A stretch of DNA of 64,000 nt from assembly GCA_000002435.2 (NCBI GenBank), contig CM018793.1; one strand, given 5' to 3'. Made by a program: the position numbers and the translations under genes. This document shows, one piece after another, positions 1-64,000 of the stretch. Position 1 is the first letter of the stretch; each line of letters opens with the position of its first letter. The notes below the pieces were generated by a model, which was not told the DNA's origin, ran no database searches, and was given only the letters and a program-made list of their open reading frames with translations. This DNA comes from Giardia intestinalis (lineage: Eukaryota).

Positions 1-317
1 CAAGGAATCACACGGCAGGCCCCGCTCCCTTGGCTCCCCCCGTGGTATTGACGCCATCACCGCCAACGAACCAGTGCCAAGCGATTGACCGAAAATGAAT
101 AAATAATAAAAGAGCTGTAAAATTTTACTTTCACGTAAAATTATGCTTATTTTAATCAATCAGTGATCAAGGGTGAATCAATTCGGGGGAAATAAAATTA
201 CTGGTGCCTTGTACCGCATCGTGACGATGTCCGCATGCTGAGGGGTGCGGGTGTGGCGCGCGGTGTCCGGTCGAGGCGGAGTTCTCGCACACATACAGTA
301 TACACGACTTCCCTATA

Positions 318-329
318 ACTAACACGCAG
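318..329 (+). promoter_or_regulatory. Giardia-type fused branch point / 3' splice acceptor motif ACTAACACGCAG immediately preceding HSP90 C-terminal exon
   Basis: Sequence aACTAACACGCAG|GTTTATC at 318-329; matches Giardia intron 3' consensus [A/C]CT[A/G]AC[A/C]CACAG; HSP90 homology begins exactly after AG. Confidence 0.8.
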
Positions 330-1404
330 GTTTATCACAGACGAATGTACAGATATTGTTCCCGACTGGCTCACGTTCCTCAAGGGCGTGGTCGACTGCG
401 ACGATCTTCCGCTGAACATCTCCCGTGAGATGCTCCAGAAGAATCGCATCGTCAACACAATCCGCAAGAACCTCATCAACAAGGCTCTCAAGCTCTTCAA
501 GGACCTCGAGGATGACAAGGACAAGTATGAGACGTTCCTCAAGCAGTTTGGAAAGTCCATCAAGCTCGGTATCCACGAGGACAGCGAGAACCGTGGCAAG
601 CTCGCCAAGCTTCTGCGCTACTACAGTACAAAGTCCAAGGACAAGCGCACGTCCCTCGACGATTACGTCACCCGCATGCCCGAAAACCAGAAGTCGATCT
701 ACTACATCACAGGCGACTCTCTCGAGAACCTGAAGGAGTCTCCGTTCCTCGAGAGGTTTAACAAGAAGGGCATAGAGGTTCTGCTTATGGACGAGGCCAT
801 CGACGAGTATATGACCTCCTCGCTCAAGGAGTTTGAGGGTAAGCAGTTGAAGTGCATAACCAAGGACGGCATCGACCTTGAGCTCACGGAAGACGAGAAG
901 AAGGAGCAGGAGGAGAAGAAGGAGCGCTTCGCAAAGCTCTGCAAGTACATGAAGGAGGTCCTTGGCGATAAGGTCGAGGGAGTCCGCGTCGGGTGTGATC
1001 GCCTTGTAGACACCCCGTGCATCCTCGTCACCGCAGAGTGGGGCTGGACTGCCACGATGAGCAAGATCATGAAGCACCAGGCGCTGAGAGACGACACTCT
1101 GGGCAGCGTGATGGCCGGAAAGAAGACCCTGGAGCTTAACCCCGACAGCAGCATCATCCAGAATCTCGCCTCTAAGCTCGACGACGACGCAGAGAACCTC
1201 TATGTCAAGGACATCACAACCCTTCTTTTCGAGACGGCCCTTATCCAGAGCGGGTTCGACATTGAGGACACCGCAACCTTTGCCAAGCGCATTCACGCCA
1301 TGGTCCGTGTCAGCCTGGGAGACGACACCGCCGCTGCCCCTGCTAGCGACCTTCCTGCCCTTGAGGAGTGCCATGATGAGGAGGACGTTGACGAAGTTGA
1401 CTGA
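330..1404 (+). CDS. hspC: HSP90 C-terminal exon (middle + C-terminal domains; HspC half of a split hsp90 gene); first base completes a codon from an upstream exon not present in cis
   Basis: Translation from 330 gives (V)[48 protein letters not shown]... matching the HSP90 block [37 protein letters not shown]; ends ...EEDVDEVD* (MEEVD-type tail); homology does not extend upstream of 330; high GC3 codon bias. Confidence 0.9.
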
Positions 1405-1434
1405 GACTGTGAACTTGTTGTGTTACTTTGTGCT

Positions 1435-4071
1435 TCAGAGCGGCGGGTGCCTGGGTCGCGGCCGGAGGTATCCTGCGTAGTCGGAGACGATCAGCGATAT
1501 GGACTGCATCCCGCTTCGGAGCTGTGTCGCCTCGTCGCTGTACTGGGCGGCTGCCGCATGGGCGGCGTTGCACTCTGTTTCTAATTGTGCTAGAGCTGCA
1601 CGGACGGAATCTAATTGCAACTGAGCTTCGTTAAGCTTGGTCTTTAAGAGCTGTACTTCTGTGTTCTTCAGAGACAGCTCGTTTTCACGCGCCCGAAGGC
1701 ACTGCTCCAAGTTCTCGACCTTGAGACGTGTCTGCTCTTGAATTGTTCTCAATGAGACTATCTCTGTACCACGTGTATCGCTCTCCTGTTGAACACTGCT
1801 AAGCGTCTCCTCAACCTTTTTCAGTTGGAGCTGGAGCTGCTGTCTTACAAGCTTCTCGCCTTGCAGCTCAGATTTGAGTTCCTCGTCAGTCTGTTGAGAC
1901 GACAGCTGACTGTGACTGTGCCGACTGCTGTGGTCAGATTCCTCCAAAGGTACAGGTCTGGGGGGAAGGGCCTGCCGTACTGTCAATTCACGGAGCCCCT
2001 CGACAGAAAGATTGGATAGACAGACAGGAAATCTCGAATTGAACATTCGGATAGCAAGTGTGGCAGCAGACTGGAGGAGACCCTGGTTTACAACAGGCAA
2101 TCTATCAAGATATGATGTTGACGATAGAACAAGGGCGGTGATGCAACTCCCTATTAATCGTATATGTACAAGACCGGGGTGCAGTGGTGCAGGCTTGTGG
2201 CAACCATTGCTTTGTTCATGAGAGCAGTGGGTTTCCTTGCTGTCATAGCGAGCACCCTGGATAAGTTTTGCGCTAGAACTAAGCTCTGAAATGGCGGACA
2301 GCAGAGATTGATCAACTTTGCGCGTGGCTGGAAGAGGCGTACTCAAGGCAGAGCCAGCGTGTGTAGCAAAACAGACCGTATTGAAAATCAGCAAGTCTGA
2401 AATATGTGTGAGAAGCTCCAAAGATCTATCAAGGTGTTCCCAGTAAATACGTTGCATTGTTGTTGTCAAAGTAATAGTTTGTCTTATCAAGGAGTCAATC
2501 TCCTCTGAAGAAAATATATTAACACAAACACTTGTCGCGGTATAGGCTATAAATCGGCCAAGAGTCGATAAAAGAACAAAGTAATATTGCAGCAAAGCAT
2601 TATGTTCTCTTTCGAAGGATGATGGAGATTGATTGGTCAGCCTATTAACGATTGACTCCATTGCTGTGAAGCACCCTTTAAGATTAGCCTTGACAACCTG
2701 AAAAGACATAAGCTTCCCGCCGATCTTCTCTTTGGGAATAGCAAATGTAACTCTGAAGGAAGATATAGGCGACAGTGTCACGCGGTACAGGTGTGCGAGG
2801 AACATGGCCGAGTAGGCGGAGTATCCTTTACAGTCGGCTATCTCGCTGAAGAGGAGCTCGTATCCCCGAGCTCTGATGAACTCATCTATGAAGGCAGTGT
2901 GCATCTGTTTAAAGGGCATAGCTGAGAATGCCGATGAGACGTCCCCACTCCCCATTAGAGAAAGGAAAAGCAATACGCAGTACGGCCTGTTTAGTGGAGA
3001 GCAGTCGTTCAGAGCAAACCGAACGAGTATCGAGACTCGCTGGACGCCATCTTGCGTAAGCTTGGCAAATGCTAAAGGTGTCTTGCTGGACATCTGCAAA
3101 GGTGAGAACACAACGGTAAAGAGATAAAATGACACTAGGATATCTTGGAAGATTGCCCTACTAGATGCGAAGGTTTGCGCGAAGATGTGCTTGATGGCGG
3201 GTTCGCAGGTACCATTCTCGGCACCTGTAGGAGGGGGGTCCAGCGTAAATGTAACTAGCTTCTTGAGGATGTTACTCAGAAACATTGGAGGAATGTGTTC
3301 GGTGCTATTGCTTAGGAAATACCGTAAGACGTATTGATACACTATGGTAGTATACGTGTAGTTTCTCCCTTCCAGCAGCGTGCTTAGTTTGGTGGATGCG
3401 TAAAGGTTTGCTGTCTGTCTGAAATTAAACAAGAGCGCGAGTGATACTGTCAACTCAATTAAATGGCAGATTAGCTGTTTCTCCGACGCAGCCAGAGTTT
3501 GCTTTGTCGTAGATAGAAGCTTCTCAAGAGTGGCCAAGCAGGTATATGAAAGACTGGATACGGCGCAGTACAAAGAATGCAAAGATGGATATGTGTATTC
3601 GTCAAAAGTATCCATGTGCAGTGGCCCGTGTTGCAATCTAATCATGAGTAAGACACTGATAAAAAGCCGAAGTAGCGCCGGAGAAAAATCTAAAGTAGGA
3701 AGCATTCCACTGGAAGCCTCATTCTGGATAGATATGGCTGAATTAAGCAGAGAGTTCACCACTAGTTTTAGAAGTAGAAACAGGGTGGTATAATCCACTA
3801 CAGGTAATGCTTCTTTCAGCACGAAGGCTAGGAAATGAGCCATTTTTTCACTAGTAAGAAAGATGGGGTGTGCGCAAAGGACCTTAACTAGTTTTTGGAG
3901 CACTGGAACAGTGAATTGAAAAATGCTATCTGCACGGCACATGAGCGCAACATTTGCTAGTAGGGCGTCAGCAACAGCAGAGCAGTCCTCCATGGTTGTG
4001 CGGGACCGCTCTAGTTTGTCCAGCAGGTCCAAATACCCACCAAGATTCATTTTTATATATTCAGCCTCCAT
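1435..4071 (-). CDS. hypothetical protein, ~600 aa alpha-helical N-region plus ~250 aa C-terminal coiled-coil (heptad E/L/Q/K-rich)
   Basis: 878 aa uninterrupted ORF; C-terminal 'EELKSELQGEKLVRQQLQLQLKKVEETL...' coiled-coil character; no recognisable catalytic motif. Confidence 0.55.
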   Translation of the reverse strand: MEAEYIKMNLGGYLDLLDKLERSRTTMEDCSAVADALLANVALMCRADSIFQFTVPVLQKLVKVLCAHPIFLTSEKMAHFLAFVLKEALPVVDYTTLFLLLKLVVNSLLNSAISIQNEASSGMLPTLDFSPALLRLFISVLLMIRLQHGPLHMDTFDEYTYPSLHSLYCAVSSLSYTCLATLEKLLSTTKQTLAASEKQLICHLIELTVSLALLFNFRQTANLYASTKLSTLLEGRNYTYTTIVYQYVLRYFLSNSTEHIPPMFLSNILKKLVTFTLDPPPTGAENGTCEPAIKHIFAQTFASSRAIFQDILVSFYLFTVVFSPLQMSSKTPLAFAKLTQDGVQRVSILVRFALNDCSPLNRPYCVLLFLSLMGSGDVSSAFSAMPFKQMHTAFIDEFIRARGYELLFSEIADCKGYSAYSAMFLAHLYRVTLSPISSFRVTFAIPKEKIGGKLMSFQVVKANLKGCFTAMESIVNRLTNQSPSSFEREHNALLQYYFVLLSTLGRFIAYTATSVCVNIFSSEEIDSLIRQTITLTTTMQRIYWEHLDRSLELLTHISDLLIFNTVCFATHAGSALSTPLPATRKVDQSLLSAISELSSSAKLIQGARYDSKETHCSHEQSNGCHKPAPLHPGLVHIRLIGSCITALVLSSTSYLDRLPVVNQGLLQSAATLAIRMFNSRFPVCLSNLSVEGLRELTVRQALPPRPVPLEESDHSSRHSHSQLSSQQTDEELKSELQGEKLVRQQLQLQLKKVEETLSSVQQESDTRGTEIVSLRTIQEQTRLKVENLEQCLRARENELSLKNTEVQLLKTKLNEAQLQLDSVRAALAQLETECNAAHAAAAQYSDEATQLRSGMQSISLIVSDYAGYLRPRPRHPPL

Positions 4072-4123
4072 CCACGCTTACTAACCTGTTCCCTGCGCAG
4101 GGAAAAGAATCATAGAAATTAAA

Positions 4124-4891
4124 ATGGGGCTATACACACATAACAATGCAGTAAGTTTCATAGCAACCGGATTGTCAATAATCTTATATGGCACGCTTTT
4201 TGGCTTTGTCAAGCGTGATCCAACCTCTTTAAGAGTAGGCCTTGAGGCGTGCATGCGCAAAGGCGTCAAGTTCATTGGTTGCATTAAAACTTTAGAGAAA
4301 GAGGAGAGGCACTCTGTCTTCTTTTTGTTAGCCATTGTATGCTTTGCAGCTGTGCTGGCGATACTAGCTATACTCATGTCTATTTTCTATTGTTGTTGCT
4401 GCCGAAGTATTAGGAGTGCAAGATATCTGCACAGGGCGATTACGGGAGTCACAACAGTGGCAGTGTTTGATGTTGTATCATTTATCACGTCCTCGCTCAT
4501 CTATTATAAATACGATTCGGCAAATAGTAGTGGAGTAATTGTGAGCAATTCTGCTGGTACTAATGCATACATAATTGCTAGATACACAGGGCTGGCTATG
4601 GTGTGCATTAGCAGCGCATGGGTAATAACCATAGTGATAGGGTCGCCCTTAGCATCAACAAACAACCTGCTAATGAAGGCGCTCACCATGATCATTGGGG
4701 CCTGTTCGATATTCTTCATCCTGGCGATCATTATGGGCACGGATGCCGCCCATTTGTTACGTCACCTATCTGATTATCGCCATCAGGCCAAGGAGATGGG
4801 ATGTGCCATGTCCGCTGCTGCTATCGTTGTATACGTATTTACTTTTCTTGATGCCTGTCTATGCATCACAGAAGGTACTACAAAGTCGTAG
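4124..4891 (+). CDS. hypothetical multi-pass membrane protein (about 6 predicted TM helices)
   Basis: 255 aa ORF with repeated 20-residue hydrophobic stretches (e.g. VFFLLAIVCFAAVLAILAILMSIFY, ITIVIGSPL..., IIGACSIFFILAIIMG); A-rich sequence before ATG. Confidence 0.5.
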   Translation: MGLYTHNNAVSFIATGLSIILYGTLFGFVKRDPTSLRVGLEACMRKGVKFIGCIKTLEKEERHSVFFLLAIVCFAAVLAILAILMSIFYCCCCRSIRSARYLHRAITGVTTVAVFDVVSFITSSLIYYKYDSANSSGVIVSNSAGTNAYIIARYTGLAMVCISSAWVITIVIGSPLASTNNLLMKALTMIIGACSIFFILAIIMGTDAAHLLRHLSDYRHQAKEMGCAMSAAAIVVYVFTFLDACLCITEGTTKS

Positions 4892-5891
4892 ACTGCTTCA
4901 CCAGAAACATGCAGTAAAAGTCGTCGCCCATCGCTCTTGATTCATAGTCAATTGTATTTTGGCCAGCAAAGCAAATCCATGCCGAATAGTGCCCATTATC
5001 AACACAGAACGAAACCTCTGAGAGCGACTTCAAGGTTACCGATTTGTTCTCCACAACAACGCTTCCATGCTTCACATCCTGAAACTCTATTTTCTGTCCA
5101 TCTTCATCTTTTACTGTAGAGCCGTGATATGAACTCTTTGAATATTCTAATTCAGATTGGAAAACGAACAATCTGATTGGGATGCAGCCATTTCGTTCTA
5201 AGATAAAGCCAAAGCACTCCTTGGTAGAGTATATACCACTGCGAATGAAGGAGAAGTCAGATCGATATCTGGCGCTAACTTCTGCATACTTTTCTCTACA
5301 GCTCAGCTTATCGGCGCAAACAACTTGTAAGTCCGTTACATCTATCATAGCATCGTAGATCATGCAGTTCTGCTCCCCTCTATTGGCAACATCACTGGGA
5401 GTTTCTAAGAAATGGTTTATGTACACTGACAAAATTCGCTCATTCTTTCTGGTGATAAAGGACAGCCTCGGGTCATAGATAGACTCCAAGATTCCATCAC
5501 GGATCATCGCATCTCTCAAGGATTTGTAAAACAAAAATCCCACATAGTTTTCCGAAATGCAAAAGTAGTAGAGATATTCTGTCTTGGTGTGCATTACTGG
5601 TATCGACGAAGACACGGTACTGGCCAGAACAGTTGTCTGCTCGGTGACATGCATTGGCGACTTAGTAATGAAAGAGACGCGTCCTCCCTTCCAGACAGGC
5701 TTAGATACGTCTATGTCCACACCATTAGAAACCTGGACCATCTCTTGTGGGATGTCAAACAGAAAGACGTTTTGATAGCGCATGAGCTCTGTGTCCGTCA
5801 AATCAAACAATTTCCACTTAAATCTTAACAAGAGCAGAGCGGGTTTTCTCTCAAGCTTAATAGAAGGTGGAAAACTGGCCGCGCGCCACAC
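4878..5891 (-). CDS. hypothetical protein (337 aa), beta-rich, no recognised family
   Basis: Long ORF in otherwise tightly packed locus; convergent 3' end overlaps the 4124..4891 gene by 14 nt. Confidence 0.45.
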   Translation of the reverse strand: MWRAASFPPSIKLERKPALLLLRFKWKLFDLTDTELMRYQNVFLFDIPQEMVQVSNGVDIDVSKPVWKGGRVSFITKSPMHVTEQTTVLASTVSSSIPVMHTKTEYLYYFCISENYVGFLFYKSLRDAMIRDGILESIYDPRLSFITRKNERILSVYINHFLETPSDVANRGEQNCMIYDAMIDVTDLQVVCADKLSCREKYAEVSARYRSDFSFIRSGIYSTKECFGFILERNGCIPIRLFVFQSELEYSKSSYHGSTVKDEDGQKIEFQDVKHGSVVVENKSVTLKSLSEVSFCVDNGHYSAWICFAGQNTIDYESRAMGDDFYCMFLVKQSTTL

Positions 5892-17459: not shown

Positions 17460-18714
17460 TTAGATGTCGGCCGCCATGAGTAAAGATACACCAGCAAGGA
17501 TCCATTTTGCGGGCGGCTCCCTCGTCTTGATCTGGAACGTCCATATGTAGGTGGGGCCGCGCCTCTTTGTCTTGTATACAGGGCAGTCGTAGACGTCCTT
17601 GAGGTCCGCCTTGTCTGCGGTCACTGCCTTTAAGTAGATTGGCGGAAGCTCTGGGAAGAGGTCCTTAAGGATGGAGTCCCTGATACAACCGCCCTTCTTG
17701 TCCCAGCGAGCGCCCTCCATGTAGAGGCCGTAGATATACGCACCCTCTCTTGGCGGAGCGGTGATTTCCGAGAGCTCCTTTTTCGTCACATCGGTGATGA
17801 GAGCCATCTTGTCGAGAGGCCACTGGTTCATCCTGGCAGTTGACTGGAGGACGGCGCGCAGGAAAGATTGCGGGTTGAAAAGCGCTGGAAGCCAGACAGC
17901 CTTTGGAAGATTGAGATCAGATGACCACGAAACCAGCTGGTCGCAGCGTTGTATCATGTCCTTCAACCACGGGCCAAGAGACTTCATACTCGGATATGCA
18001 ACGGCTTCCCATTTAGCAGGCACGACATCCAGGTACATGGACTGCATGAGGGCCTCCATTTGCTCGGAGATGGTCAAGTCGCCCTTGAGGCCCAAAGCAA
18101 GTTCCTTGAGAGACGACTTTATTGTGGAGAGCAGCTCATTCATGCGCCCACACTCCTGTAGACAGACACTGACGTAGGGTGTCCGCTCCTCCACTCGATC
18201 GGTAATCTCCAGCATGTCAAAGTTCTCGGGGAGCATATCCAGGATGTCTTCCAACTGTGCCTTGCAGCGGTCCTCGCGAGAGAGTTCGCCACTAGTGCTT
18301 GTGGCCGAGGTGCGCGGCTGCAACTGCATAAGCATCATGAAAAGGGTGTTTGACTGAGTAGTAAGGAACATGATCTCCGCGTTGGGGTGGAGACCATACA
18401 TCTTCGGCGATTCCTCAGGAAGCGCCTCAGCAATGTATGCCTTGTAGCCGTCGTAGCTCATTGGGGACGGCACAGGGAAGTCTGGGGCGAAGAACTTCCC
18501 GTCTTCAAAGAGAGCATCCGACATCAAGGAGTCCATAAACGAGCGCATGAGCCGGCGATCCAGATCATCGCCGACGTGTCCCCCGTAGAAGATGTCGCAA
18601 AACATGTATTTGAGGTCGTCCCAGGGGATTTTGGTGTTATTTTCTAGGTAGTTGAACAAGACATCCTTGCATATGGTCAGGTCGCCATTGTTGAAGTTGT
18701 AGGGGACGTTCCAA
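17460..18714 (-). CDS. dynein heavy chain C-terminal exon (last ~417 aa of a split DHC gene); first base completes a codon from an exon not present in cis
   Basis: Translation upstream of track ORF continues in frame: (x)WNVPYNFNNGDLTICKDVLFNYLENNTKIPWDDLKYMFCDIFYGGHVGDDLDRRL... = DHC C-terminal domain signature (YEFNESDLRI...IPW/F.ALRYL.GE.NYGGRVTDDWDRR); tail KTKRRGPTYIWTFQIKTREPPAKWILAGVSLLM matches DHC C-terminus; reading frame is closed right after the CAG acceptor. Confidence 0.85.
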
Positions 18715-18726
18715 CTGTGTGTTAGT
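18715..18726 (-). promoter_or_regulatory. Giardia fused branch point / 3' splice acceptor motif ACTAACACACAG (perfect consensus) immediately upstream of the dynein exon
   Basis: Minus-strand sequence cagacacatACTAACACACAG|TTGGAACGTCCCC; plus strand 18715-18726 = ctgtgtgttagt. Confidence 0.85.
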
Positions 18727-53407: not shown

Positions 53408-56400
53408 TTCTTAGCTTCACACTCCACAACTGGCCCAGCGACATGTTGACCATTTTACAAGCAGTTCTGGGTCGCCCAGTCTGGGGCCGGCTGCTGTGCA
53501 TTCTCTGCTTGACTGCCAGGGTCCGCGTCTGGCCCAGACACTAGATGGACAGGAGGCACGGACAAACGCCATTTGCTTGTTGCTTTCATGATCCACGAAG
53601 CTGCTGTCTTTATGTGAGTCTCGACCCAGGTCGGTCTCCGTTGTAGGTGCAACAGTCTTGCGCATGCAATCTGGAGGATCTACGTTAGCGGGTCGAGCCG
53701 AGCAATCCTTGTTAGCGCCTGCCATCCGACGTCTCTGTTGTTGAACTGGCCTGTAGAAGTCCGCTATAGGCCCTCAGGCTCTTTGTCTGTGAGGTTCTGT
53801 GAGGTCCTCTATACCGGTCAGGCCTGTCCGCGTACTCTGTTGATGGGCGAGCTGGTGCATGCAGTCACAGCCCCTGCGCCACCTTCCATTCGGCACTCGG
53901 CGTGTCCACCTGCTTCCGGCCTGCCCTCGCAGAGCACGCTAAGCGCCCACCTATAGCGCATGTCGGTGGAGACTCCTCGGGAGCAATTTGCGGGGGTCTC
54001 GATGAGGTGGCCGACGCCCAGTGAACGACCCCAAGCCACCCTTTAGTGTCTGCGCTGTCGCTCCACGAGAGTGCGTAGTGGGATGCGGCCCGGAGTCCTC
54101 ATGTGCGGGGGCTGACAAGGACTGACAGCCACAGTCAACGGCAGAAAGTTCGGCACCCCGTGTTCCCACGACGTCTCCGATCGCAGTACTGGCGGGGCCT
54201 GACGGCGCTTCTCTTCTTAATTCGGAACGAGTTAAGGAGTTTCCGCCGTAGGATGGCCGAACTGGCGGCCGGCAGGGCTGTGCGATGTGTTAGAGATTGT
54301 TAGAGATTCATACTGTATATTGTGCAGTGGCTAACGTGTATGGGTGTCCCACCGAAGACCCGGCGAAGGATGGCACCGGAGGTGAGACAGGATGACTCCT
54401 GGTGGAGGGGACCACGGTGCTGGCTTGCCTGCAGATGCCGTGGCCAAAATCTCAGCCCGTCCAGGAGTTTAACGGAGGTCATGCGGCCGGACACCGAGGC
54501 CTACCGGAGAGCCGCATCGCCCCTGCACGAGCCAGCAAGCACTGCCTTCGACCCGACCACAGTTGAGAGCGCCCATGTCCGTGGATGCCGTCGGTCAGGT
54601 CCCTGAAGACCACCCTGCTCACAGCCCCAGGGATCCCTCTGCAGACTCTGATTTCTATATCCCTGGGGTAGATGTTTGCGGATAGCGGCACAGGGCTCAG
54701 CAAAACCGCCAGAAGATCCACAGCACACTGTCATTAACTATAAACGTCTTGCGGTATTCATTCCACAATTGAGCCGGTCGTACTGACACAGGAACTGGAG
54801 TCAGGCACTTCTAGGGTGCAACTACAGGACTGTGGAGGAGCTTGCCTTCACACAAAGAAGATCACGTGGACCAGATGTGCCCGGACTGAGAAGCGCCCGC
54901 TTTACCGAGTAATGGTCGCTAATCTATGCACACAGATCATGTTTGGCGGCAAGCTCCCCTGTAGCTCATGCATCACTGTGAATCACTGCCTAGAGGCTTG
55001 TGTTGGAGATGCCGCAAGACACTAATGGCTGACAGGTGTGACTAGCCGTTCTTCCAGTGGTCGTCTCTGGATGCACCGAGTACCTAAGGCGATAGATCAG
55101 CGCTGCAGGCCTTGACTGTCACGGGCCTTGTGCATAGCTGATCAAATGCCCAACACACTCTGCCCGAGGGTGCCCAAACCCCACGGTGCTGTAGTCGGGC
55201 TGCTAAGGTGCGAGAGGTGGGGCACAGAGGCGCCTATCAGAGCCAAGGATCTATGTGTCACCTGCCTCTGGGTGGAGCAACTACGCCATAGTAGGGGGTG
55301 TTTGTTGCCATACAGAAGTGGGTACGATGAGATACGAAGGCACAGTCCTGCCGCAGAATCCGACGGGTGCTCGGAAACGGGTAACCCGGTAACCTCGTAG
55401 AATAGCAACGTCGAAGCTATAGAGTAAGCAGATGTAATAGGAGATGCGTTTACTACCTAAGTCACGCCTTGCCCCGGCACACGAACCACCAGCAGAGGAA
55501 GCCGACGAGGCCCCCCACAACAACGATGACAGCGACAGAGATCCCCGCTATGGCGCCTGTGCTGAGGCCGCTCTTGTTCGTGCTCCCGCCGTTGTTGTCA
55601 CCAGTACTATCACCCATCTCGAGGCACATGAACGCACTGGTGGATGACACCGTGCACTGTCTGCACCCAGCGAGCCCCTCAGAGCACTTCTTGCACGGTC
55701 CACTATCGCTACTCTCCTTATAATATCCACGAGCACATACTTTGCATGTGGCAGCCGCGGTTTCGCAGGTGTAGCAGCTTTCATGACATTTCGTGCAAGC
55801 TTTGACGTTACTGAATGCTATGTATCCATCCATACATTCTGTACATTCATTTGCAGTATTACACGTCTTACAGCCTTCAGGGCATATTACAAGGTTGTTT
55901 TCATTATTTAAGTTAAACCCTGGCATAGGTCTATCACAAGTCCCACCAGTTGTCGCCACTGTTGCACATACACTGTGCGCAGGGTACTTCTCATCTTCGT
56001 AGCACCCTCCGTTCATCCGAAGGAGCCCATTAGCACACGAATTGCAGACACCGGTTCCTTGAGAGGTGCATGTCGCAGCCCGCCCACTTGGTTTCGGTGC
56101 ACAGACACCGTTCTGGGGATACTCATTGTCCTGGCTACATGCAGAGCAGTACCTTGTGCCTTTAACAATTAGATCACATGCTTTACAGTTCCCAGTGGCT
56201 TTATCTGTATTGACAACACATTCAGGAGCGCATTTACCCTTCTGCCCATTTGCATAGTCAAGGATGGTTCCAGGTTTGCACTCAGTACAATCATTAGCAG
56301 TGTTTCCCTTACAATTCTTGCAACTACCGTCACACTTCTGGCATATCCCAGCATCGTCAGCATAGAATCCATCTTCGCAGAAACCGCATTTGCCGTTCGG

Positions 56401-62400: not shown

Positions 62401-64000
62401 TCCAACACAAGCCTCTAGGCAGTGATTCACAGTGATGCATGAGCTACAGGGGAGCTTGCCGCCAAACATGATCTGTGTGCATAGATTAGCGACCATTACT
62501 CGGTAAAGCGGGCGCTTCTCAGTCCGGGCACATCTGGTCCACGTGATCTTCTTTGTGTGAAGGCAAGCTCCTCCACAGTCCTGTAGTTGCACCCTAGAAG
62601 TGCCTGACTCCAGTTCCTGTGTCAGTACGACCGGCTCAATTGTGGAATGAATACCGCAAGACGTTTATAGTTAATGACAGTGTGCTGTGGATCTTCTGGC
62701 GGTTTTGCTGAGCCCTGTGCCGCTATCCGCAAACATCTACCCCAGGGATATAGAAATCAGAGTCTGCAGAGGGATCCCTGGGGCTGTGAGCAGGGTGGTC
62801 TTCAGGGACCTGACCGACGGCATCCACGGACATGGGCGCTCTCAACTGTGGTCGGGTCGAAGGCAGTGCTTGCTGGCTCGTGCAGGGGCGATGCGGCTCT
62901 CCGGTAGGCCTCGGTGTCCGGCCGCATGACCTCCGTTAAACTCCTGGACGGGCTGAGATTTTGGCCACGGCATCTGCAGGCAAGCCAGCACCGTGGTCCC
63001 CTCCACCAGGAGTCATCCTGTCTCACCTCCGGTGCCATCCTTCGCCGGGTCTTCGGTGGGACACCCATACACGTTAGCCACTGCACAATATACAGTATGA
63101 ATCTCTAACAATCTCTAACACATCGCACAGCCCTGCCGGCCGCCAGTTCGGCCATCCTACGGCGGAAACTCCTTAACTCGTTCCGAATTAAGAAGAGAAG
63201 CGCCGTCAGGCCCCGCCAGTACTGCGATCGGAGACGTCGTGGGAACACGGGGTGCCGAACTTTCTGCCGTTGACTGTGGCTGTCAGTCCTTGTCAGCCCC
63301 CGCACATGAGGACTCCGGGCCGCATCCCACTACGCACTCTCGTGGAGCGACAGCGCAGACACTAAAGGGTGGCTTGGGGTCGTTCACTGGGCGTCGGCCA
63401 CCTCATCGAGACCCCCGCAAATTGCTCCCGAGGAGTCTCCACCGACATGCGCTATAGGTGGGCGCTTAGCGTGCTCTGCGAGGGCAGGCCGGAAGCAGGT
63501 GGACACGCCGAGTGCCGAATGGAAGGTGGCGCAGGGGCTGTGACTGCATGCACCAGCTCGCCCATCAACAGAGTACGCGGACAGGCCTGACCGGTATAGA
63601 GGACCTCACAGAACCTCACAGACAAAGAGCCTGAGGGCCTATAGCGGACTTCTACAGGCCAGTTCAACAACAGAGACGTCGGATGGCAGGCGCTAACAAG
63701 GATTGCTCGGCTCGACCCGCTAACGTAGATCCTCCAGATTGCATGCGCAAGACTGTTGCACCTACAACGGAGACCGACCTGGGTCGAGACTCACATAAAG
63801 ACAGCAGCTTCGTGGATCATGAAAGCAACAAGCAAATGGCGTTTGTCCGTGCCTCCTGTCCATCTAGTGTCTGGGCCAGACGCGGACCCTGGCAGTCAAG
63901 CAGAGAATGCACAGCAGCCGGCCCCAGACTGGGCGACCCAGAACTGCTTGTAAAATGGTCAACATGTCGCTGGGCCAGTTGTGGAGTGTGAAGCTAAGAA
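59463..64000. repeat. right arm of large inverted repeat (runs to window end)
   Basis: Reverse complement of 53408..57945; see left arm. Confidence 0.9.
59982..61946 (+). CDS. vsp: variant-specific surface protein (VSP), head-to-head with its inverted duplicate
   Basis: Start chosen by homology to first VSP (MFEKILF...; alternative ATG at 59961 MLYGLLAMFEKILF; track start 59766 is a non-ATG extension); CXXC/GGCY motifs; CRGKA tail; AGTAAAC at 61954-61960. Confidence 0.85.
   Translation: MFEKILFGILILQVARAAKTCTEASSDPQTGQCKQGKCISIGGDRVCTDCAKPGEVPINGECKDKSDGLITTAGCEKVDGALDEHSTTCGKCTKAGYFLHKGGCYVQAAPPGQTVCKSASSSAGLCETCNDANGFFKNMGASDNTHQSCIACNEADTIDGFRGVPNCKVCTPPEGPGSATCTTCEGEYYLLAVTPSSCVEKTQCKTDHFPVTAKGIKKCVPCGDTDAGGIIDCKTCTLKEARGLAGESAIKCTTCNGGKTPNDEGSTCVDAPEPPPSDCPVENCQKCSADKKTCEECKDKNYLTPTGMCIKYCEYILGYYSSTEGGKGICKKCEVKNCVVCDPNGKCGFCEDGFYADDAGICQKCDGSCKNCKGNTANDCTECKPGTILDYANGQKGKCAPECVVNTDKATGNCKACDLIVKGTRYCSACSQDNEYPQNGVCAPKPSGRAATCTSQGTGVCNSCANGLLRMNGGCYEDEKYPAHSVCATVATTGGTCDRPMPGFNLNNENNLVICPEGCKTCNTANECTECMDGYIAFSNVKACTKCHESCYTCETAAATCKVCARGYYKESSDSGPCKKCSEGLAGCRQCTVSSTSAFMCLEMGDSTGDNNGGSTNKSGLSTGAIAGISVAVIVVVGGLVGFLCWWFVCRGKA

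Follow-up and report, generated by a model that had tools for sequence, protein, structure and literature searches.

Our analysis of a 64,000-nucleotide stretch of Giardia intestinalis DNA (assembly GCA_000002435.2, contig CM018793.1; the whole stretch is called the window below) identified its beginning as one half of the split hsp90 gene. We consider it virtually certain that the HspC transcription unit of hsp90 occupies positions ~200-1404, where one half of a split spliceosomal intron (the 3' one) is followed by exon 2, and that this exon is joined in trans to exon 1 from the HspN locus. Both locus and mechanism are already known, having been published and tested experimentally since 2011: the split intron of Giardia hsp90 was reportedly described by Nageshan et al. 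2011 (J Biol Chem) and Kamikawa et al. 2011 (Curr Biol). A previous reading of the letters alone (the sequence-only reading) had proposed that the 5' half of this gene is encoded elsewhere and joined by trans-splicing, and this proposal was borne out by the HspN locus, where exon 1 is followed by a GTATGT donor. The HspC unit contains the following elements, with positions numbered along the window:

200-329, plus strand: 3' half of the split (trans-spliced) hsp90 intron, with an exact 3' end (AG at 328-329) and an inferred 5' end
278-304, plus strand: 27-nt pairing segment GGAGTTCTCGCACACATACAGTATACA, whose partner is nt 13-38 of the HspN 5' intron half
308-314, plus strand: CTTCCCT, a short pyrimidine tract that separates the pairing segment from the branch site
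318-329, plus strand: fused branch-point/3' splice-site motif ACTAACACGCAG, with predicted branch A at 322 and AG at 328-329
330-1404, plus strand: exon 2 of hsp90, equal to residues 348-704 of KAE8305296.1 and BAJ33526.1
331-429, plus strand: 'junctional peptide' region, 33 codons without a start codon of their own, with the catalytic Arg at codon 424-426
430-1404, plus strand: former stand-alone gene HspC (GL50803_13864, XP_001705478.1, 324 aa), identified by exact-sequence look-up

The coding part of this unit begins in the middle of a codon. Base 330 (G) is the third base of the split Val347 codon, of which GT is supplied by exon 1; residues 348-704 then occupy 331-1401 and the plus-strand frame runs without interruption from 331 to the stop codon at 1402-1404. 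A tblastn search of the window with the 704-aa Giardia Hsp90 placed these residues at 331-1401 with 100% identity and, at E<=10, recovered no N-terminal half of Hsp90 anywhere in the 64 kb. The Pfam HSP90 family (PF00183) matches the exon with E=1.5e-141, entering only at profile position 163 of 518, so that the exon lacks the N-terminal ATPase domain along with part of the middle domain; the abrupt onset of homology with a split codon noted in the sequence-only reading is thus real. Upstream, the frame is shut by an in-frame TAA at 316-318. Exon 2, with the last 357 residues of the protein, holds the remainder of the middle domain as well as the C-terminal dimerisation domain and closes with DVDEVD, and the hallmarks of a cytosolic Hsp90 (HSP90A/Hsp82 family) are all present: the PF00183 match, LNISREMLQ with the catalytic-loop Arg, and the acidic TPR-binding tail DVDEVD. 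ATPase activity of the spliced Hsp90 protein has been reported (PMC4006730). The exon also shows the high GC content at third codon positions (GC3) remarked on earlier: at 0.78 it tops the 23 open reading frames (ORFs) of at least 300 aa in the window (mean 0.52, sd 0.08).

Most of exon 2 had been annotated as a gene in its own right, window 430-1401 being identical to XP_001705478.1, "Heat shock protein HSP 90-alpha", of Giardia lamblia ATCC 50803. The 99 nt between the splice junction and its ATG are nevertheless under coding constraint, as we observed by extracting both halves of the gene from assemblages A, E, B and from G. muris: all 28 of the 28 nucleotide differences in 331-429 among these four fall on third positions and are synonymous, which rules out the earlier annotation of this segment as an untranslated leader. 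The protein-level proof comes from the literature. A 33-residue junction segment derived from the "5' UTR of HspC" has been reported and matches 331-429 exactly (PMC4006730), and a junction peptide of 15 residues, equivalent to window 391-435, was sequenced by tandem mass spectrometry from the full-length protein (PMC4006730). As an observation apart, two antisense ORFs of 136 and 351 aa run across the hsp90 exon and intron half on the minus strand, at 198-608 and 319-1374. One such ORF was formerly annotated as the hypothetical gene GL50803_31692 (PMC4006730); both look like by-products of the strong sense-strand codon bias rather than genes.

The exon is preceded directly by a Giardia acceptor, as the sequence-only reading had proposed. 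The motif ACTAACACGCAG at 318-329 conforms to the pattern [A/C]CT[A/G]ACAC[A/G]CAG of the Giardia split introns; the published acceptor consensus is CT[AG]ACACACAG (PMC5224939). The degenerate Giardia motif MCTRACACRCAG has two matches in 64 kb against 0.05 expected, a number reached in none of 100 shuffles. The acceptor reads ACTAACACGCAG in the assemblage E isolate P15 and in G. muris and ACTAACACACAG in assemblage B, the form [A/C]CTAACAC[G/A]CAG being common to A, E, B and G. muris. The other half of the earlier observation also stood, since no GTATGT donor occurs on the plus strand in 1-329. How far the intron half extends upstream is less certain. By analogy with HspN, HspC transcription would start near 190-205, because the GGGGAAAnAAAA element abuts the ATG in HspN, and the 3' intron half is probably about 130 nt long, because positions 1-57 are the coding start of a divergent gene and ~95-205 the probable promoter. 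Contrary to the earlier suggestion, the 3' intron half can therefore not take up all of 1-329.

The HspN locus was found on a second contig (L005), and its product belongs to a single protein cluster that holds the 376-aa HspN ORF XP_001707991.1, the 704-aa cDNA protein BAJ33526.1 and the WB gene model KAE8305296.1. HspN exon 1 encodes residues 1-347, and the full-length protein goes on with FITDEC after Val347. The exon ends ...GTCAAGAAAGT at L005 position 4040 and is followed by GTATGTTATGTTTGTATGCTGTATGTGTGCGAGAC-TCCTTTACTCAA, the boundary reading ...AAGAAAGT / GTATGTTATG at 4040/4041, that is, GT and then the GTATGT donor. Downstream of the donor, nt 13-38 of the intron (TGTATGCTGTATGTGTGCGAGACTCC, L005 4053-4078) form with window 278-304 a helix of 26 pairs (25 Watson-Crick and one G-U) with one bulged U. 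A local antiparallel pairing alignment scored 65, whereas none of 200 shuffles exceeded 47, and the duplex energy, computed with the 5' half restricted up to the cleavage motif, was -42.8 kcal/mol against -20.3 +/- 3.6 for shuffles (z=-6.3). The complementarity that had been predicted for somewhere within ~100-329 was thus found in this segment. These 26/27-nt complementary elements are the ones that two published constructs, HspN-delta26 and HspC-delta27, lack (PMC8494341). In the centroid structure of 190-340 the pairing segment is mostly unpaired, which, together with the lack of any excess fold, fits a role in intermolecular pairing. Directly 3' of the HspN segment, at L005 4076-4087, lies the RNA-processing motif TCCTTTACTCAA, which according to the literature is the site at which the 5' halves of all Giardia trans-introns are cleaved (PMC3510501). 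The distance between the two loci is likewise known from published work: HspN and HspC lie 777 kb apart on chromosome 5, and chromosome conformation capture and fluorescence in situ hybridisation (3C/FISH) provide evidence that they are close to each other in the nucleus (PMC8494341).

The product of joining was also observed in a public assembled contig (L018, from the Logan assembly of SRR3602120), which we take by inference to be transcript-derived and which carries an uninterrupted 704-aa ORF. It aligns to the HspN contig up to 4040 (4042 with the shared GT) and then to window 330-2404 with 100% identity over 2075 nt; it is thus the chimera across position 330 by which the sequence-only reading had proposed to check its claim. 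Exactly the same junction is shared by the cDNA-derived BAJ33526.1 and the gene model KAE8305296.1, and the unjoined loci are present in several genomic assemblies. In published RNA-seq of WB, each data set contains 871-3849 junction reads (PMC5224939), and HspC precursor transcripts have been found to be ~15-fold more abundant than those of HspN (PMC4006730).

The exact identity of two other window proteins with those of WB, the 878-aa ORF at 1438-4071 on the minus strand with XP_001705477.1 (GL50803_16578) and 19074-20693 with the glycerol kinase KAE8304960.1, together with 87.6% DNA identity to the orthologous locus of P15 (contig L001, assemblage E) and ~76.5% to the assemblage B loci, identifies the window as assemblage A, WB-type. 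The split intron is conserved well beyond it. The GTATGT that follows exon 1 and the cleavage motif are kept in A, E, B and G. muris, the latter as TCCTTTACTCAA in E and B and as TCCTTTACT[C/T]AA in G. muris. The pairing segment is identical in A and E, with the same -42.8 kcal/mol, and nearly invariant in B, where pairing is held partly via G-U pairs (-36.4 kcal/mol). In G. muris the corresponding place is taken by a perfect helix of another sequence, GCGTCAGCCGCTG / CAGCGGCTGACGC, and the sequence comparison therefore indicates that at the genus level it is the pairing, and not the sequence, that is conserved. The same split of hsp90 has been described in G. muris (PMC7641422), where the halves lie on different chromosomes (HspC on CM016927.1, HspN on CM016925.1/CM016928.1). 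We also noted that G. muris has two copies of HspN exon 1, on CM016925.1 (L016) and CM016928.1 (L017), which encode the same 342-aa product and both carry GTATGT, the pairing segment and the cleavage motif; their upstream promoter sequences differ, and only the copy on CM016928.1 retains the upstream neighbour of the G. intestinalis type, an eIF2B-like hexapeptide gene. A relative represented by a 9-kb Logan contig (L019, SRR29980984) has an hsp90 frame at 3001-5109 that is ~73% identical to that of Giardia and uninterrupted across the split site, in line with the reported absence of trans-introns from Spironucleus (PMC5224939, PMC7641422). A glucokinase fragment adjoins it, and the hsp90 gene call is broken once downstream (526 aa, then a separate call of 154 aa).

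Together with published work, these elements suggest the following course of events. A promoter in the AT-rich block at 95-205 would drive a pre-mRNA that opens with ~130 nt of intron, while a second pre-mRNA from HspN would carry exon 1, the GTATGT donor, the pairing segment of 26 nt and, as cleavage motif, TCCTTTACTCAA. The two RNAs would anneal via 278-304 and the HspN segment, rebuilding an intron of normal Giardia architecture in which the helix lies ~35 nt from the donor and 13 nt from ACTAAC. With A322 as the branch point and the AG at 328-329 as the acceptor, exon 1 would then be ligated to base 330 by the spliceosome, the HspN 5' half would be trimmed at TCCTTTACTCAA, and the product would be an mRNA for the 704-aa Hsp90. 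Excision by the spliceosome, giving a Y-branched intron at the ACTAAC adenosine, is predicted from the identity of the motifs with those of Giardia cis-introns and is taken from the literature (PMC3510501, PMC8494341).

Several points weigh against this interpretation. The contig from SRR3602120 is presumed to stem from RNA, the 5' end of the HspC pre-mRNA is a predicted one, and the region 190-340 folded alone is no stabler than shuffles (z=+1.1), with no structure supported beyond the pairing segment. Weak trans-splicing without nuclear proteins in vitro has moreover been reported by one group, as cited in a later paper (PMC8494341), so that a strictly spliceosomal route in vivo rests on the motif and small nuclear RNA (snRNA) arguments. 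This last point is the basis for the possibility that joining is real but mainly autocatalytic, driven by the 26-nt duplex. The later paper cites this in vitro reaction as earlier work of the same group and as dependent on the complementary elements (PMC8494341), but its authors themselves rate it as highly inefficient (PMC8494341). The halves, on the other hand, bear exactly the extended 5' signal (GTATGT) and the fused branch-point/3' splice-site signal of Giardia cis-introns, with which the Giardia U1 and U2 candidates pair (PMC3510501), and there are neither group I or group II features nor excess structure in the 3' half. We therefore regard a mainly autocatalytic reaction as very improbable.

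Even less credible are two explanations that dispense with trans-splicing altogether. With only 329 nt preceding the acceptor, the window alone cannot settle whether hsp90 is an ordinary cis-spliced gene with its 5' exon shortly beyond the window edge, but the surroundings speak clearly against such an in-cis exon: the first gene met upstream points the other way, with its start at window 57, the orthologous P15 and assemblage B contigs contain in the 3 kb upstream the divergent gene, RRP36 and Dus and no HSP90, HspN sits in a different gene neighbourhood (between the eIF2B-like hexapeptide gene and RFC), and the halves are on different chromosomes in G. muris. We give this explanation next to no weight, and the same is true of a stand-alone, truncated C-terminal Hsp90 protein whose translation would begin with the ATG at 430 (or with the GTG at 388) behind a fortuitous acceptor-like motif. 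The 324-aa annotation XP_001705478.1 and the ~15-fold excess of the HspC precursor over HspN (PMC4006730) would agree with such a protein, but the 99 nt before its ATG are under strict coding constraint in all four taxa and encode the segment with the catalytic Arg, it was the full-length protein that yielded the sequenced junction peptide (PMC4006730), and the acceptor motif is both non-random and conserved. Trans-splicing of HspN to HspC by the spliceosome thus remains by far the best explanation of the locus.

The locus is the one known as the Giardia hsp90 'splintron' (HspN GL50803_98054 and HspC GL50803_13864), with which it agrees in protein, junction, acceptor, the 26/27-nt complementarity and an identical 33-residue junction. 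Nothing substantive differs from the published description. The sole discrepancy is the polypyrimidine tract, CTTCCCT in the window, which is printed as CCTCCCT for the WB HspC clone in a figure legend (PMC8494341); this difference of one base could be a typographical error or a clone difference, and P15 has CTTCCTT. The other trans-spliced introns of Giardia (two in outer-arm dynein beta, one in dynein gamma and one in the p68 helicase) have in common with hsp90 the GTATGT donor and the CT[AG]ACACACAG acceptor, as well as complementarity between the halves and TCCTTTACTCAA in the 5' half (PMC5224939, PMC3510501); the host genes differ. Spliced-leader (SL) trans-splicing in kinetoplastids, nematodes and dinoflagellates is likewise spliceosomal, involves two separate RNAs and yields a Y-shaped intron rather than a lariat. 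However, it places one common non-coding leader, provided by an Sm-bound SL ribonucleoprotein, onto many mRNAs, whereas hsp90 joins two unique protein-coding exons guided by gene-specific base pairing. The split group II introns of organelles (psaA in Chlamydomonas; nad1, nad2 and nad5 in plant mitochondria) resemble hsp90 in the break within the intron, separate transcription and RNA-RNA pairing, but are self-folding organellar ribozymes, in contrast to the short nuclear spliceosomal intron of hsp90, which has no ribozyme domains and no excess structure.

Upstream of the intron half, the first 205 positions of the window contain these features:

1-57, minus strand: start of a divergent neighbour gene for a multi-pass membrane protein, with its ATG at 57-55
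95-205, no strand: AT-rich intergenic block (GC 0.27) shared by the divergent gene and HspC
117-128, within the AT-rich block: palindrome GTAAAATTTTAC
121-142, within the AT-rich block: 8-bp hairpin aattttac/gtaaaatt
164-171, within the AT-rich block: TGATCAAG
186-199, within the AT-rich block: GGGGAAATAAAATT

The assumption that 1-329 is entirely non-coding proved wrong. Read on the minus strand from 57 to 1, the DNA translates to MASIPRGEPRERGLPCDSL, which matches the N-terminus of the orthologous 637-aa gene in the same place in P15, beginning MASISREEPRGKGLECDSLQ (window 27 aligns to position 2598 of the P15 contig); positions 1-57 are not part of the hsp90 intron half. The adjacent AT-rich block, which also holds a repeated AATCAAT, probably serves as a bidirectional promoter. 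Across A, E and B, window ~114-203 hardly varies, against an overall identity of only 76-88% between the loci and diverging flanks. The composite TGATCAAG...GGGGAAATAAAA (GGGGAA) occurs only once in the 64 kb; it is seen again at the HspN locus, directly before the ATG, and a degenerate version, TGATCAAT...GGGGAAGAGAAAAAA, is found upstream of HspC in G. muris. It is possible, although we consider it rather unlikely, that 114-203 with TGATCAAG...GGGGAAAnAAAA is a dedicated cis-regulatory module that co-ordinates the (heat-inducible) transcription of both halves, and not a generic initiator. Initiator (Inr) elements upstream of both halves have been reported, without the conservation of the block or the shared upstream element (PMC4006730).

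The hairpin at 121-142, which the sequence-only reading had counted as part of the intron, does exist and has 8 bp, but it is weak: in a 39-nt context it has a free energy of -7.2 kcal/mol (z=-2.8), a stability equalled by 2 of 200 shuffles. We rejected it as an intron element: its place is the promoter block with 27% GC, ahead of the point at which transcription probably starts, and it is not demonstrably in the intron; its arms are moreover a DNA palindrome/direct repeat, GTAAAATTTTAC...GTAAAATT, and only 7 of its 8 pairs are retained in B. A small non-coding RNA in the conserved block was also considered; the block has no Rfam match at the gathering threshold, and no processing motif lies nearby.

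Elsewhere in the window, we found another 3' exon that lacks its 5' partner and is again preceded by a Giardia acceptor, at 17460-18726 on the minus strand, with the acceptor ACTAACACACAG at 18726 to 18715, the exon at 18714 to 17460 and a frame that runs from 18713 downwards as WNVPYNFNNGDLTICKDV... It matches the Pfam families Dynein_C (E=1.7e-97) and AAA_lid_11, the latter from profile position 26 of 140; its ATG-started part is exactly XP_001705465.1, 'Dynein heavy chain' of WB, and clusters with the outer-arm dynein beta cDNA BAJ33527.1. This is the last exon of dynein beta, already known to be trans-spliced. Its acceptor has the canonical ACACACAG, and its intron half looks shorter than that of hsp90 (~60 nt after an AT-rich element). 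The exon lies ~17 kb from HspC on the opposite strand, and two of the five 3' halves of Giardia split introns are thus in one window. We considered and dropped the idea that this linkage is a functional hub; the two exons are on different chromosomes in G. muris, which argues against any requirement for it. Finally, the window contains two full-length 5S rRNA genes, at 54145-54264 (minus strand) and 63144-63263 (plus strand), each matching Rfam RF00001 with 88.3 bits, inverted and ~9 kb apart.

The locus itself adds no new biology and is best regarded as a clean positive control for reading gene architecture from raw sequence, all the predictions of the sequence-only reading having proved verifiable. 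It is nonetheless the textbook case of a nuclear protein-coding gene that has been broken within a spliceosomal intron and is repaired at the level of RNA. The split hsp90 gene of Giardia as such bears on the co-evolution of introns, genome rearrangement and the spliceosome, and the parasite-specific splicing step on which it depends is a possible drug target.

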